Shown: in pieces, positions 4,851 to 42,950 of the stretch
How positions within the stretch are numbered: the first letter of the stretch is position 1
How the letters are laid out: each line of letters opens with the position of its first letter
Assembly: GCA_964391505.1 (NCBI GenBank)
Contig: CAYMMG010000005.1
Coordinates: forward strand, 19,676 to 83,675
Direction of reading: 5' to 3'
Length of the DNA: 64,000 bases
Origin: an uncultured Burkholderiales bacterium
GTDB lineage: Bacteria; Actinomycetota; Acidimicrobiia; IMCC26256; JAGPDB01
Translations under genes and position numbers: made by a program
Notes under the pieces: model-generated
The model's database searches: none
The model's input: the letters and a program-made list of their open reading frames with translations, nothing else
What the model was told of the DNA's origin: nothing

Positions 4851-5792
4851 ATGCGCATATTAGTAACAGGCGGAGCTGGATTTATTGGCTCGCACCTCGT
4901 AGATCGTCTTCTTGCTGAAGGTCATGATGTCGATGTGATCGATGATCTTTCTACAGGATCCTTGGTGAACCTAACTGACGCGCGAAGAAATAACCAGCGT
5001 AAGTTTTCGTTTCATCGACTCGATATCCGCTCATCTGCTGTTTCAGATACGATTGCTAAATCTCGTCCCGATGTTGTGATGCATCTCGGTGCACAAACTG
5101 ATGTTGCCGCAAGCATTGCAAAACCTGCAATTGATGCAGATATCAATATTGGTGGATCAATCAACGTCCTCGAAGGGTGTGCTCGAGCAAAGGTGGGGAA
5201 AGTCATTTTTGCGTGCACTGCAGGAATTTACGGCGAACCCCAGTCGTTACCTCTTCGCGAAGGCCATCCACTAGTGCCGCTTTCTCCTTACACGGTTTCA
5301 AAAAAAGCAGTCCTTGATTATCTCTACGCGTATCGAGCCACACATGGAGTGGAATATGTTGCTCTTGTTTTAGGCAATGTATACGGTCCGCGTCAAAATG
5401 CCCAGCAAGAAGGTGGAGCAGTCGCTCGTTTTGCGACGCAGATGATAAGTCGAGAACGTCCAACTATTTTTGGTGATGGGACACAGACGAGAGATTTTAT
5501 TTTTGTGGATGATGTTGTTGATGCATTTGTGAGAAGTATCGATCGAGGATCAGGTCTTGCTATGAACATTGGCACAGGCATTTCCACATCTGTACAAAAA
5601 CTCTTTGACCTTATTGCAACGAAAACTTCCTATAAAGATCCCGCTCGCTATGCACCTCGACGCGAAGGAGAAATAACTGATTCTGTGCTCGATTACAAAC
5701 GCGCAGAACTCCATTTGGCTTTTTCTCCGTTTACATCCATCGAAGATGGTATTGGTCGGACTATCGAATGGTACCGAGCACAAGCGCGCTAG
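4851..5792 (+). CDS. NAD-dependent epimerase/dehydratase (UDP-glucose 4-epimerase-like)
   Basis: 313 aa with a TGGAGFIGSH motif and YTVSK Tyr-x3-Lys. Confidence 0.8.
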   Translation: MRILVTGGAGFIGSHLVDRLLAEGHDVDVIDDLSTGSLVNLTDARRNNQRKFSFHRLDIRSSAVSDTIAKSRPDVVMHLGAQTDVAASIAKPAIDADINIGGSINVLEGCARAKVGKVIFACTAGIYGEPQSLPLREGHPLVPLSPYTVSKKAVLDYLYAYRATHGVEYVALVLGNVYGPRQNAQQEGGAVARFATQMISRERPTIFGDGTQTRDFIFVDDVVDAFVRSIDRGSGLAMNIGTGISTSVQKLFDLIATKTSYKDPARYAPRREGEITDSVLDYKRAELHLAFSPFTSIEDGIGRTIEWYRAQAR

Positions 5793-5896
5793 TTGCAGGG
5801 CCCGGCCTTGCAAACAACACTTGGGAAAAATCGATTAATACTTTCTTGTTTCGTTTTGCTACCCATTGGTTGCAAGGCCGGGCCCTGCAACTAGCG
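5787..5896. repeat. 27-bp perfect inverted repeat with 56-bp spacer between convergent genes
   Basis: CGCTAGTTGCAGGGCCCGGCCTTGCAA (5787-5813) pairs with TTGCAAGGCCGGGCCCTGCAACTAGCG (5870-5896). Each arm contains the CGC-TAG end of one of the convergent genes. Confidence 0.9.
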
Positions 5897-6586
5897 AAAA
5901 AGATCGTCTTGAGGATTGCGCACAAGATCAGATCCTTGACCATCGCCACGATATGAAGCAGGCAATCCGCGTATCAGCGCTGCACATGTGCCGGAATCTT
6001 TATGCATGACTAGTTCAGCAGCACCCGCAATTTCATCTGCGACGGCAATCATTGTGGCTGTCAGCTCGTGCCCATAGAAATCTTTCTTGCCTCGAAGATC
6101 GGCGAAAGAGTTTAATCCTGAGTACCCTAACGCGACGTTGGTTTCTCCCATACGGAAAGGTCGACCAAATGTATCGCTCACGATGACAGCAATATCAAAG
6201 CCGGATTTGGCTTGTATCGAGTAGCGCAAACCCTGTGCTGCGCTGTCGACGTCTTTTGGAAGAATCACAACAGTGTTTTCTTCAGTATTGGATTCGTCAA
6301 CTCCTGCATTCGCGCAGATAAATCCGTGATGAGTTTCTGAAATGACAAGAGGTCCTCGTCGTCGAATAATTTTCCTCGATTCTCGTTCAACAATATCTTG
6401 TTTTGTATTTTCGGGTGTGAGAGTTTCAATCCGTCCTCGCGCCTTAGCCACTACTTTGGATGCAACCACCAGGCAATCTGAAGGAAGAAGAGGAAAGTGG
6501 TCGACGAGCTGTCCTGTAATCATTTCCGAGAGATCGTCACCTGGGTGAACATTCCCAACACCAGTAAGCGGAATGATGGAAATCAC
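5891..6586 (-). CDS. cofE: coenzyme F420-0:L-glutamate ligase (CofE domain only)
   Basis: 231 aa with CofE-type motifs: VVASKVVAKARGRI, ANAGVDESN, SDTFGRPFRMGETNVALG. The start overlaps the cofD stop (ATGA-type coupling). Confidence 0.75.
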   Translation of the reverse strand: MISIIPLTGVGNVHPGDDLSEMITGQLVDHFPLLPSDCLVVASKVVAKARGRIETLTPENTKQDIVERESRKIIRRRGPLVISETHHGFICANAGVDESNTEENTVVILPKDVDSAAQGLRYSIQAKSGFDIAVIVSDTFGRPFRMGETNVALGYSGLNSFADLRGKKDFYGHELTATMIAVADEIAGAAELVMHKDSGTCAALIRGLPASYRGDGQGSDLVRNPQDDLFR

Positions 6587-21648: not shown

Positions 21649-21774
21649 TTAGGGTTGTTCCTGGTGCTAGGAGTAGCGACTAAGCAGCAGGTGCGGCCCT
21701 CCTACCTAATTTAGGGTTGTACCTTGGAAACGAGATGATTACGGCGAGGTACAATACAAGGTGCGACCCTCCCC
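21649..21774 (-). repeat. family A intergenic element: two adjacent hairpin-only units in inverted orientation (21649-21702, 21710-21774)
   Basis: TTAGGGTTGTTCCTGG..CAGGTGCGGCCCTCC and TTTAGGGTTGTACCTTGG..CAAGGTGCGACCCTCCCC. These are reverse complements of the GGGAGGGCCGCACC...GGAACGACCCTAAA core seen elsewhere. Confidence 0.85.
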
Positions 21775-29343: not shown

Positions 29344-30471
29344 ATGCGTGACTTCTCGGTACAGATGAAAGATCTCGCGCGTCGGGTTCAAGAAGCAAGC
29401 ATTTATTTACAAGTTGATGATGCGCGATTAGAAGTAGCCGAGCTTGAAACTCAGGCGGCGGATCCGACCTTGTGGGACGATCAGGATCGTGCTCGAAGTG
29501 TAACAAGTCGGCTTTCTTCTCTCAAGAGTGATATTGACGTGGTAGAGCAGCTGCAAGTAAGTCTTAGTGATATGCAGACCTTATATGAATTGATGCGTGA
29601 AGCAGGTGACGAATCAATTGAGAGTGAGATCGATCAGCTTTCGGGAGCGCTTACGAAACAGCTCGATCAGCTTGAACTCCGTTCTCTTTTTACCGGCGAA
29701 TATGATGAACGTGACGCGATCTGTTCCATTAACTCAGGGGCGGGCGGCACCGAGGCATGTGATTGGGCCGAGATGCTTTTTCGAATGTATTCGCGTTGGT
29801 GTGAACGCAACGAATTCACGCTTGTCGTCACGGATCTATCTCCGGGCGAAGAAGTAGGAATATCATCGGTATCGTTTACTGTTAAGGGTCGTCATGCATA
29901 TGGATTGTTGACAGGCGAGAAAGGAGTGCATCGGCTTGTGCGGATTTCACCCTTCGATTCACAATCGCGTCGTCATACGTCGTTTGCTTCTTTTGAAGTT
30001 GTTCCTGCACTTGAGGTCGAAGAACTTCCTGAAATAGATGAATCCGAACTTCGTGTCGATACCTATCGTGCTTCAGGTGCAGGGGGTCAGCATGTCAACA
30101 AAACAGACTCAGCGATACGATTGACACACCTTCCCACAGGAATTGTTGTTCAGTGTCAGAATGAGCGAAGTCAACTCCAGAACCGAGCACAAGCAATGGC
30201 GATCCTCAGCGCACGTTTGGCGGAGAAACAAAGGCTTGATCGGGCAGCTGAACTTGCCAAGATCTCAGGCAACAAAATGGAAGTGGGATGGGGGAGCCAA
30301 ATAAGAAGCTATGTCCTCGCTCCCTATCAGCTTGTTCGTGATGAACGAACAAAAATGATTGACGGACACGAAAAACCGATTTATGAAACAGGGAATGTCG
30401 TTAATGTTCTCGACGGTGATATCGAAAATTTTCTTTCAGCTTTCTTACAATGGCGCAGATCACAATCGTAG
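29344..30471 (+). CDS. prfB: peptide chain release factor 2 (single uninterrupted frame)
   Basis: 375 aa with the SPF tripeptide (RISPFDS) and GGQ (SGAGGQHVN). There is no in-frame TGA at the usual frameshift position (IYLQVDD). Confidence 0.95.
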   Translation: MRDFSVQMKDLARRVQEASIYLQVDDARLEVAELETQAADPTLWDDQDRARSVTSRLSSLKSDIDVVEQLQVSLSDMQTLYELMREAGDESIESEIDQLSGALTKQLDQLELRSLFTGEYDERDAICSINSGAGGTEACDWAEMLFRMYSRWCERNEFTLVVTDLSPGEEVGISSVSFTVKGRHAYGLLTGEKGVHRLVRISPFDSQSRRHTSFASFEVVPALEVEELPEIDESELRVDTYRASGAGGQHVNKTDSAIRLTHLPTGIVVQCQNERSQLQNRAQAMAILSARLAEKQRLDRAAELAKISGNKMEVGWGSQIRSYVLAPYQLVRDERTKMIDGHEKPIYETGNVVNVLDGDIENFLSAFLQWRRSQS

Positions 30472-30480
30472 GTTCCAGAT

Positions 30481-30521
30481 TAAGTGCGAGGTCCGTCCTC
30501 ACTAAGTGCGAGGTCCGTCCT
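30481..30521 (+). repeat. 22-bp tandem repeat x2 (TAAGTGCGAGGTCCGTCCT)
   Basis: Exact 19-nt copies lie at 30481-30499 and 30503-30521. The core GAGGTCCGTCCT(C) is complementary to the core of the downstream 58-bp repeats. Confidence 0.9.
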
Positions 30522-30547
30522 TAAAAAATGCGATCGTCTAGTTGAAC

Positions 30548-30720
30548 ACTATTTTCAAGAGGACGGACCTCATCGCCAATGCATCGAGACCGCGGCGTAG
30601 CGATCACTACTTTCAAGAGGACGGACCTCATCGCCAAAGCATCGAGACCGCGGGAAAGCGCTCTCTTAGTTCAAAAGGACGTGTCTCACCCTTCTCAGGG
30701 CGGAATCCTAAAGAAACTAG
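30548..30720 (+). repeat. ~58-bp tandem repeat x3 (third copy degenerate)
   Basis: ACTAYTTTCAAGAGGACGGACCTCATCGCCAAWGCATCGAGACCGCGG occurs at 30548 and 30606. A degenerate TTCAAAAGGACGTGTCTCACCC lies at about 30670. Confidence 0.85.
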
Positions 30721-30728
30721 GTGTGAGT

Positions 30729-30820
30729 CAACTGAACGAACTGCTGCTACTTCGTTGTTTTGGGGGAGGGTCGCACCTGCGCTTAGTCGCTACGCTCCTG
30801 GCGCAGGAACAACCCTAAAT
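30729..30820 (+). repeat. family A intergenic element, full unit
   Basis: CAACTGAACGAACTGCTGCTACTTCGTTGTTTTGGGGGAGGGTCGCACCTG...CAGGAACAACCCTAAAT. Confidence 0.9.
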
Positions 30821-30868
30821 GCGAAGAAATCTCTTCTCACCCTCGCACTTTGGTAACCTGTTATTTCC

Positions 30869-31576
30869 ATGATTCGCTTCGAAAACGTTACAAAACACTA
30901 CGGGCAAAATGTCGTTGCTCTTAGAGAAATCAATATCGAGATACAAAAAGGCGAGTTTTGTTTTCTTGTGGGACCTTCAGGTTCGGGTAAATCGTCCTTC
31001 TTGCGGCTCTTGTTGCGTGAAGAAGTTGCGAGCACAGGTCGAGTTCTTGTTGCGGGTCGAGATATTGGCCGACTTTCTCAGTGGAAAGTACCTCAGCTTC
31101 GACGAAATATTGGCTGTATTTTCCAGGACTTTAAACTGCTACCCAACCGTACGGTTTACGAAAATGTAGCTTTTGCTCAAGAAGTAATCGGTCGTCCCCG
31201 GGACGTCATCCGTGCTCAAGTTCCTCAAATTCTCGAACTTGTTGGACTCGCAGAAAAGCAGAACCGTTTTCCTAACGAACTCTCCGGTGGAGAGCAACAA
31301 CGTGTTTCTATTGCTCGTGCTTTTGTGAATCGTCCACTTATTCTTCTTGCTGATGAGCCAACAGGAAACCTCGACCCTGCAACAACAGTGGGTATTATGC
31401 GATTGCTCGATCGAATTAATAAGACAGGAACAACAGTTGTCATGGCTACGCATGACGTCCGTATCGTCAACGAAATGCGTCGACGAGTTATAGAACTCGA
31501 ACATGGAAACTTGGTACGTGACCAACAACGCGGTGTATATGGTTCTGCACAACAGGTAGAAGGGGAACAAGCATAA
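30869..31576 (+). CDS. ftsE: cell division ATP-binding protein FtsE
   Basis: 235 aa with GPSGSGKS Walker A, LSGGEQQR signature and [11 protein letters not shown] Walker B. Confidence 0.95.
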
Positions 31577-32463: not shown

Positions 32464-32488
32464 TAAGGCCTGACCTTATTTCTCATAT

Positions 32489-32551
32489 GTCATCGCGAGA
32501 GAGCCGACCGAAGGGAGTCCTGAGCTTGCGAAGGATCTCGAGGGATCTCCG
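32489..32551 (+). repeat. family B intergenic element (long form)
   Basis: GTCATCGCGAGAGAGCCGACCGAAGGGAGTCCTGAGCTTGCGAAGGATCTCGAGGGATCTCCG. It is the near-exact reverse complement of 42848-42918. Confidence 0.8.
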
Positions 32552-39969: not shown

Positions 39970-39985
39970 CGAATCAATCAACACT

Positions 39986-40347
39986 TGGAGGTGGGGGGTT
40001 TCGAAACCCCCGTCCTTTAGACCCATTCGTAGGCCTTCTCCGAGCGCAGTTACCGGTAAGGTTTCGAAACATTTGCCGCCAGTAACTCTGACAAAGTTTC
40101 TAGTCAACTAAATATGTCCTCGTAAGTAGCTAACGCCTTACGGAGCAAGTACCGTGATTGAACCTGATGCGGCGACGGTACCTACCGCTTCAGGCACTAC
40201 TTAAAATTAATTAAGCAGCTAGTGCGTAGACTGAGCTTTCGCTCTCATCGTTTGCATTTATTGTTTTGCACAGACTCTTTAACGACAGTCTGCAACGTCG
40301 GCTCGCTTCTCCTACGGCCAAGTACAAAGTCGAAACCATGCACCCCC
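39986..40347 (-). ncRNA. ssrA: transfer-messenger RNA (tmRNA)
   Basis: The 5' end is GGGGGUGCAUGGUUUCGAC. The 3' end is GGACGGGGGUUUCGAAACCCCCCACCUCC-A. A 7-bp acceptor stem carries G3:U (Ala identity). An internal tag ORF is present. CCA is not encoded. A TACAAT -10-like box lies at 40357-40362 (minus strand). Confidence 0.9.
40210..40254 (-). other. tmRNA tag-peptide reading frame ANDESESSVYALAA + TAA
   Basis: Resume codon GCA at 40254-40252. 14 codons end in the canonical ALAA, followed by UAA. Confidence 0.8.
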
Positions 40348-42847: not shown

Positions 42848-42918
42848 CCGCTGCGCGGAGATTCCTCGCAATCCTTCGCAGGCTCAGGACTCCCTACGGT
42901 CGGCTCTCTCGGAATGAC
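42848..42918 (-). repeat. family B intergenic element (long form, inverted)
   Basis: The reverse complement reads GTCATTCCGAGAGAGCCGACCGTAGGGAGTCCTGAGCCTGCGAAGGATTGCGAGGAATCTCCGCGCAGCGG. Confidence 0.8.
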
Positions 42919-42950
42919 AATGGGTAGAATTCTCGAAACGACTGAACTGA

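Follow-up and report, generated by a model that had tools for sequence, protein, structure and literature searches.

In the BOX elements of Streptococcus pneumoniae, which are built as boxA - boxB(n) - boxC, the terminal modules pair in a stem-loop and the internal tandem module varies in number (PMC3049150). BOX elements often cluster with other repeat families and can create spurious open reading frames (PMC3049150). In the 64-kb stretch of DNA analysed here (the window), the spacer between prfB and ftsE holds a 213-nt composite repeat block whose build appears closest to modular MITE-type repeats of this kind. Like BOX and the BOX-type repeats of S. suis, the block is small, non-coding, intergenic and modular, with terminal pairing and an internal tandem array. 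It has no sequence relationship to BOX, however, and in the block the tandem modules themselves carry complementary cores. BOX occupies more than 100 dispersed loci, whereas only one copy of the block is known.

MITEs, such as the Correia elements of Neisseria, are likewise about 200 nt long and non-coding, with inverted repeats and a highly paired predicted structure; they too show a short direct repeat when filled and empty sites are compared, and lie, as the block would, in a transcribed spacer. Unlike them, the block is not AT-rich, its terminal inverted repeat is not perfect at its outermost end, and it has no known multiple copies or parent insertion sequence. Its geometry also seems to resemble that of Correia elements and of the REP/BIME/REPIN clusters of gamma-proteobacteria. 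The latter are extragenic, carry inverted pairs that give long hairpins, and form mosaic clusters with variable unit numbers downstream of stop codons, as the block does. The arms of the block, in contrast, are not palindromic and have no conserved GTAG-type head, and no RAYT gene is seen in the annotated 20 kb around it; REPs make no target duplications, and their high copy number is not seen for the block. Mycobacterial MIRU/VNTR loci share with the block an Actinomycetota host, tandem units of 40-100 bp and a position in spacers between co-directional genes. MIRUs, though, are one sequence family at about 40 loci and are without the inverted partner arms that the block possesses, and the block shows no copy-number variation among five contigs. 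Attenuators and leader switches, finally, also place several complementary segments upstream of a gene, but the block lacks their exclusive folds, U-tract terminator, sensing element and conservation.

Is the block a switch in the expression of its neighbours, or is it repeat DNA? An earlier note, made from the sequence of the window alone, had left the choice between an attenuator, a processing site and nested MITE insertions. The block has the appearance of a common selfish or junk repeat and not that of a conserved gene switch. We give a probability of about 0.6 to its being lineage-specific, hairpin-forming non-coding repeat DNA that arrived as a MITE/BOX-like modular insertion.

The prfB-ftsE locus

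The spacer is bounded by two genes on the forward strand. prfB, encoding release factor 2, is a 375-aa ORF at 29344-30471 with a TAG stop at 30469-30471, and ftsE lies at 30869-31576; both identities rest on NCBIfam equivalog models (TIGR00020, E=9e-142, and TIGR02673, E=2.6e-86, respectively). Between the end of prfB at 30471 and the start of ftsE at 30869 there are 397 nt. Gene order is secA-prfB-ftsE-ftsX-M23 peptidase ... smpB-tmRNA, and the G+C content is 46%. The nearest named FtsX comes from a MAG labelled 'Acidimicrobiia bacterium'; one source project, PRJEB14051, is cited in wastewater studies.

Many bacterial prfB genes contain a programmed +1 frameshift site. Here prfB is unbroken from 29344 to 30471, with no sign of such a site. 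The tmRNA gene (39985-40347, minus strand, tag peptide ANDESESSVYALAA) lies close to smpB and completes a prfB-ftsEX-smpB-ssrA neighbourhood typical of Actinomycetota.

Two ORFs called in the spacer, 30542-30856 and 30579-30818, had been described as lying entirely in repeat sequence, and this is borne out. Neither matches a protein family or has a homologue, and public assemblies call no gene within the prfB-ftsE spacer; these ORFs are spurious. A protein search with the 104-aa repeat-spanning ORF, which sought further copies of the repeat by way of spurious gene calls, returned nothing.

A composite block of complementary tandem modules

The block ('B', or 22/58 block) spans 30479-30691. Its left part consists of two tandem 22-bp arms on the forward strand, at 30481-30502 and 30503-30524. 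The two exact copies announced in the earlier note are confirmed at 30481 and 30503, with identity over 19 nt: the sequence TAAGTGCGAGGTCCGTCCT recurs without change at 30481-30499 and 30503-30521. TRF assigns the arms a period of 22 and 2.2 copies.

To the right follow two tandem 58-bp units, also on the forward strand (30544-30601 and 30602-30659), each with the core AAGAGGACGGACCTCATCGCC. The units are 90% identical and their 27-nt core is the same in both. A degenerate third unit, delimited by TRF and sequence reading, runs from 30660 to about 30691, ends just past its core and forms the right end of the block. The pair of near-identical repeats plus a degenerate third that the earlier note described is thus present, with starts here set at 30544, 30602 and 30660. 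TRF gives this array a period of 58, 2.3 copies and a score of 186, reaching 30681; the unit is present in 2.3 to 2.5 copies.

The central claim about the block's build, that the 58-bp core is the reverse complement of the arm, also holds. Perfect complementarity extends over 13 nt between 30488-30500 and both 30559-30571 and 30617-30629, and over 12 nt between 30510-30521 and both 30560-30571 and 30618-30629. In 64 kb the 12-mer GAGGTCCGTCCT is met four times, each time in the block, against an expectation of 0.2 (shuffles, 0/100). The arms, GAGGTCCGTCCTC, are not self-complementary, and the arrays of 22 and 58 bp are both strictly head-to-tail. Arms and 58-bp units alike give the impression of tandem duplication within the block.

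The 5' half of both arms, AAGTGCGAGG, is in addition complementary to CCTCGCACTT at 30841-30850 on the forward strand, just upstream of ftsE, where the pairing probability with arm 1 is 0.59. This 10-nt complementarity is marginally past chance expectation. As an outer terminal repeat of the block, 30841-30850 was considered and set aside: chance alone would give about 0.08 matches of this kind in 400 nt, and four of its ten bases are ancestral, falling in a motif common to all relatives.

Occurrence in strains and relatives

Five contigs of one strain (L003, L004, L005, L111 and L112), which stem from four samples or runs, carry the identical block. Three of these, L003, L004 and L005, match the window at 99.8-100% identity and have an identical 397-nt spacer; L111 and L112, which were located via PrfB, have the identical spacer as well. 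The tandem units show no copy-number variation among the five contigs. The short-read contigs L111, L112 and L005 end inside the 58-bp array, at window positions 30648, 30589 and 30619, respectively.

A close relative represented by L001, L002 (GCA_035329685.1) and L006-L009 encodes an identical FtsE protein and shares 85-92% DNA identity over most of the aligned region. In these contigs the block is absent, with no trace of its units, and the prfB-ftsE spacer measures 232 nt. The L001 spacer (L001 9769-10000) contains one and a half units of family A, a dispersed repeat described below; the half unit is a stretch of 70 nt from module 1, duplicated exactly and in tandem. In six more distant relatives, at 72-79% FtsX identity, the spacers are 71-99 nt long, and relatives at this distance (including L093, L095, L096 and L099) have neither the block motifs nor family A. 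The comparison with related genomes that the earlier note had proposed accordingly finds the block missing from the ~90%-identical relative and from six distant ones. It follows from this comparison of spacers that the ancestral prfB-ftsE spacer was short, and that the block arose, or survived, in one shallow lineage only.

Where exactly do the filled and the empty site part? The empty site in L001 reads TAA-TTTTCCAG-GGTGAAACCCTGAAAAGCTAGATGCGAGTCAACTG, the filled site in the window TAG-GTTCCAG-(213 nt)-TTCTCAG-GGCGGAATCCTAAAGAAACTAGGTGTGAGTCAACTG. The left flanking direct repeat, TTCCAG at 30473-30478, is homologous to the L001 post-stop sequence TTTTCCAG; the right one, TTCTCAG, lies at 30692-30698. 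It is followed on the forward strand by an ancestral spacer segment, GGCGGAATCCTAAAGAAA (30699-30716), homologous to the L001 sequence right after the prfB stop, GGTGAAACCCTGAAAAG. In a local alignment, the homologue of the L001 post-stop sequence starts at 30692, and once 30479-30698 is removed the spacers of the window and L001 are colinear at 87% identity. The block is therefore an indel that starts 7 nt past the prfB stop, with the first arm as its left end and the truncated third 58-bp unit as its right end.

The flanking direct repeat matches at 6/7 nt with one indel, and was picked out post hoc. These flanks fit an insertion with target-site duplication, and a microhomology deletion in the relative would equally give the same picture. 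The window and L001 also differ beyond the block, in the family A hairpin and in 28 nt downstream of the hairpin that have been replaced; more than one event therefore separates the two lineages.

Search for further copies and the class of the block

The search for a second copy of the block was negative in the 64-kb window, where low-stringency blastn with each unit gave 13-nt chance matches only, and in about 40 kb of related contigs. An exact scan for the 58-bp core had 0 matches in the GTDB representative genomes and 0 in the JGI metagenomes, two collections without this very locus. In IMG/VR, which is also without the locus, 16-mers of core and arm met chance matches only, with no extended similarity, and blastn of the spacer found no match in plasmid and phage collections that again are without it. 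These negatives are weak, because none of the scanned DNA collections contains even the prfB-ftsE locus. The genome-wide count of the 22-bp and 58-bp units, by which simple MITEs were to be recognised, was carried out on the window and the related contigs; no further copies turned up there.

To which class does the block then belong? At 213 nt it falls within the range of MITEs (<~500 nt) and it is non-coding. Comparison with the empty site yields a candidate target-site duplication with a 6/7-nt match, of which a deletion would leave the like. Its inverted repeats are perfect over 12-13 nt from arm to internal core, but at the right terminus the third 58-bp unit, read in inverse orientation, agrees with the left arm at only ~11/16 bases. 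The Pfam-annotated genes in 20 kb around the site include no transposase. Set against REP/BIME/REPIN, the block has arms that are not palindromic, a single locus in 64 kb, and no Y1-transposase domain in its annotated neighbourhood. Set against BOX-type repeats, it has the modularity and the complementarity; dispersal and copy-number variation are not seen in the five contigs and the scanned DNA. The suggestion of nested MITE insertions consequently survives in part: an indel against an empty site, with a 6-7-nt direct repeat, favours a MITE-like element, while nesting of insertions did not emerge and the search for a second copy of the unit came up empty in the scanned DNA.

We favour the following course of events. 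An element would have inserted 7 nt downstream of the prfB stop, into a spacer already holding a family A repeat. It would have brought a left terminal module and a right module with complementary 12-13-nt cores, in the manner of a small modular MITE/BOX-type element. Local tandem duplication of each module may then have raised the 22-bp module to two copies and the 58-bp module to about 2.5, the last copy having decayed and been truncated. If transcribed as part of the prfB 3' region, the block would form one very stable nested rod, not a switch, and any effect on expression would be incidental, for instance as a barrier to 3' exonucleases or as a substrate for a double-strand RNase. ftsE most likely relies on a conserved promoter-like or start-proximal motif downstream of all repeats. 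Gain by one insertion appears more economical than loss. Several points tell against this account: the searched DNA yielded no second copy of either unit, and a dispersed mobile family is unproven; the right end of the block matches the left arm imperfectly; the flanking direct repeat, chosen post hoc, is inexact and would also fit a deletion; and the two lineages differ in the rest of the spacer as well.

Could the block instead have originated on the spot, with no mobile element involved? Slippage and template switching would have made an inverted copy, with tandem duplications thereafter; or an older block would have been deleted in the relative between the TTCCAG/TTCTCAG microhomologies. 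We regard such a local origin as possible but rather unlikely. It agrees with the head-to-tail order of both arrays and with the want of any other block copy in the scanned DNA, and the exact 70-nt tandem duplication in the L001 spacer indicates that slippage is active there. The start of the arm, TAAGTGCGAG, moreover resembles the 5' boundary of family A in the spacer, which is CTAAGGTGCGAG in L001 and CTAGGTGTGAG in the window. Yet for some 190 nt of the block no source could be detected, either in the ancestral spacer or in the rest of the window. In the deletion version the flanking direct repeat must have pre-existed by chance, whereas one target-duplicating insertion explains block and flanks together.

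Predicted fold of the spacer and the start of ftsE

Folding of 30472-30868, a check that the earlier note had advised, predicts a single dominant nested arrangement. In this double hairpin (30488-30629, forward strand), the outer helix joins arm 1 (30488-30500) to core 2 (30617-30629) and the inner one joins arm 2 (30510-30521) to core 1 (30560-30571). In the partition function the arm2-core1 helix has a probability of 0.998 and the arm1-core2 helix one of 0.95, against ~0 for the alternative pairings. The former helix sits inside the latter, with all four segments paired at once; there are no competing structures, since this one nested fold satisfies all four segments. Of the mutually exclusive or nested hairpins that had been envisaged, the nested ones are thus predicted and the mutually exclusive ones are not. 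The folding energy is -67.8 kcal/mol for 30481-30640 and -147 kcal/mol for the whole spacer. The spacer folds have z-scores of -5.7 and -6.9 on the two strands; a DNA palindrome would be expected to fold as well on one strand as on the other.

Signals of termination are missing from the spacer. No U-tract stands behind any stem, the cores being followed by CAUCGCCAA, and a scan of 30472-30868 for a terminator or a sigma-70 consensus found no site. Searched against Rfam, the window yields only tmRNA and tRNA at the gathering threshold, and 30300-31000 yields nothing meaningful at E <= 10. The ftsE start region is not specifically sequestered, with an unpaired probability of ~0.5.

Immediately ahead of ftsE, downstream of all repeats, lies a motif, CTTTGGTARCCT, that is present in all lineages 9 nt upstream of the ftsE ATG. 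In the window it reads CTTTGGTAACCT (30848-30859, forward strand); across six lineages its distance from the ATG is fixed at 9 nt, and it is like an extended -10 element (TGnTAnnnT). The consensus is CTTTG(G/A)TA(A/G)CCT, and everything upstream of it diverges among the lineages. Several other genes without a Shine-Dalgarno sequence have a TANNNT hexamer 6-9 nt ahead of the start codon. From the conserved -10-like motif and these hexamers we infer that ftsE may have its own promoter, giving rise to a nearly leaderless transcript. With such a promoter all the repeats would belong to the 3' region of prfB, and none to a leader of ftsE. A similar TANNNT-to-start geometry is seen at the TetR gene, the SecA gene and a gene of 254 aa.

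A functional RNA in the prfB-ftsEX transcript is improbable, whether it served for attenuation, for processing by RNase III/E, or for setting the prfB:ftsEX expression ratio as a stabiliser or insulator. Such a role would suit the very stable fold (z = -5.7 over the spacer, and a 30481-30640 rod of -68 kcal/mol), as it would the ability of the 5' half of the arm to pair with 30841-30850 beside the ftsE start. It also has parallels in other bacteria, where stabilisation by REPs and cleavage of Correia elements by RNase III and of ERIC elements by RNase E are described (PMC3049150). Against it, the block is missing from a 90%-identical relative with an identical FtsE and from all distant relatives. 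No competing structure, U-tract or Rfam family accompanies the fold, the ftsE start is half unpaired, and a conserved promoter-like motif stands downstream of the block. The six differences between the 58-bp units all spare the 27-nt core, a point in favour of such a role, but this avoidance of the core is not significant, at ~(31/58)^4 = 0.08, if the cluster of changes at unit positions 53-56 counts as a single event; selection on the stems was dropped as a candidate on this ground.

The attenuator or processing site of the earlier note therefore did not stand up. Given one dominant fold in place of exclusive ones, no terminator with a U-tract, no Rfam family, an ftsE start that is half unpaired, and no conservation at this locus in relatives, we rule out a conserved transcription attenuator and consider a dedicated processing site unlikely.

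Family A and other repeats of the neighbourhood

The spacer contains, to the right of the block, a family A unit, as had been noted; its presence is confirmed, with an extent of 30717-30820 on the forward strand and a match to the covariance model of module 2 at 30759-30823 (E = 6e-18). The unit is made of module 1 and of module 2 with its variable palindrome, and is orthologous to the L001 unit with a different variable hairpin. Family A is a dispersed modular repeat of ~100 nt, with eight full and two partial units in 64 kb (cores at 21690(-), 21760(-), 26534, 30763, 32623, 32694, 35329, 36831, 36903 and 48712), which lie on either strand relative to the neighbouring genes. Module 1 may be tandem, with a period of 72. 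Module 2 has the form GGGGAGGGYCGCACC-T(variable palindrome)A-GGAACRACCCTAA: its outer pairs are invariant, and the inner palindrome varies in sequence with pairing kept; at three pairs both bases have changed in a compensatory way. In the 90%-identical relative, the palindrome of the orthologous unit is a different one. This structure-preserving variable hairpin is the most interesting thing nearby, and a separate finding.

Family A is absent from Rfam, IMG/VR and the relatives at 72-79% FtsX identity. A family A 16-mer had eight matches in IMG/VR, all by chance, and its gapped pattern had 0 matches in the JGI metagenomes, a collection which, on that result, hardly contains this organism. The two close lineages do not have family A at all the same sites, and the short direct repeat TTAAAG/CTAAAG flanks one site that is filled in one and empty in the other.

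A third repeat, family C, is ~64 nt long and has two copies, 89% identical and in opposite orientation (32488-32551, plus strand; 42856-42919, minus strand), one of which adjoins two family A units in the ftsX-M23 peptidase spacer. Summed from gene tables over the syntenic block from SpoU to TetR, intergenic DNA comes to ~1.4 kb here and to ~0.7-0.75 kb in L093 and L095. With the spacers of the lineage so crowded with small repeats, the prfB-ftsE spacer is one of several landing or expansion sites.

Two further hairpins were observed. In the Trm112-PGI spacer of L001, at ~830-900, there is a near-perfect long palindrome, GTTGGAGGGATTTACCGCGG TATA CCCGCGGTAAATCCCTCCAAC, where the window has two inverted family A units. 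At 5787-5896 of the window, a hairpin with 31-nt arms (97% complementary) and a 48-nt loop lies between the convergent ORFs 4851-5792 (+) and 5891-6586 (-), overlapping both ORF ends; its sequence is unrelated to the other repeats.

It seems to us quite doubtful that the small repeats (the 22/58 block, family A and family C) together form an undescribed active system of modular, structure-constrained intergenic elements, with the block as a young member whose nested helix, kept perfect, would serve for RNA processing or insulation between prfB and ftsEX. That the block is a diverged family A member, with its hairpin a 'zipped-up' module 2, is highly improbable. On inspection GAGGTCCGTCCT looks like the family A core GAGGGCCGCACCT (10/13) and AGGACGGACCTC like AGGAACGACCCT (8-10/12), in the same order and both flanking a loop, but homology is rejected by three tests. 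A family A profile in nhmmer has no match in the block up to E = 100; Smith-Waterman local alignment scores are at shuffle level (p >= 0.06); and a module 2 covariance model, with filters off, finds all eight true units at E <= 5e-12 and nothing in 30472-30716 at E <= 10.

Implications

The prfB-ftsE spacer should not be taken for a regulatory leader, and the matter is mainly one of annotation hygiene. The 58-bp tandem array fragments metagenome assemblies at prfB-ftsE. More broadly, one uncultured wastewater lineage of Acidimicrobiia has had its intergenic DNA roughly doubled by several small hairpin repeat families. These repeats turn over between genomes only ~10% apart and could serve as strain markers. 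They could also provide a natural experiment on the effect, if any, of such insertions on the essential genes next to them, here prfB and ftsEX.
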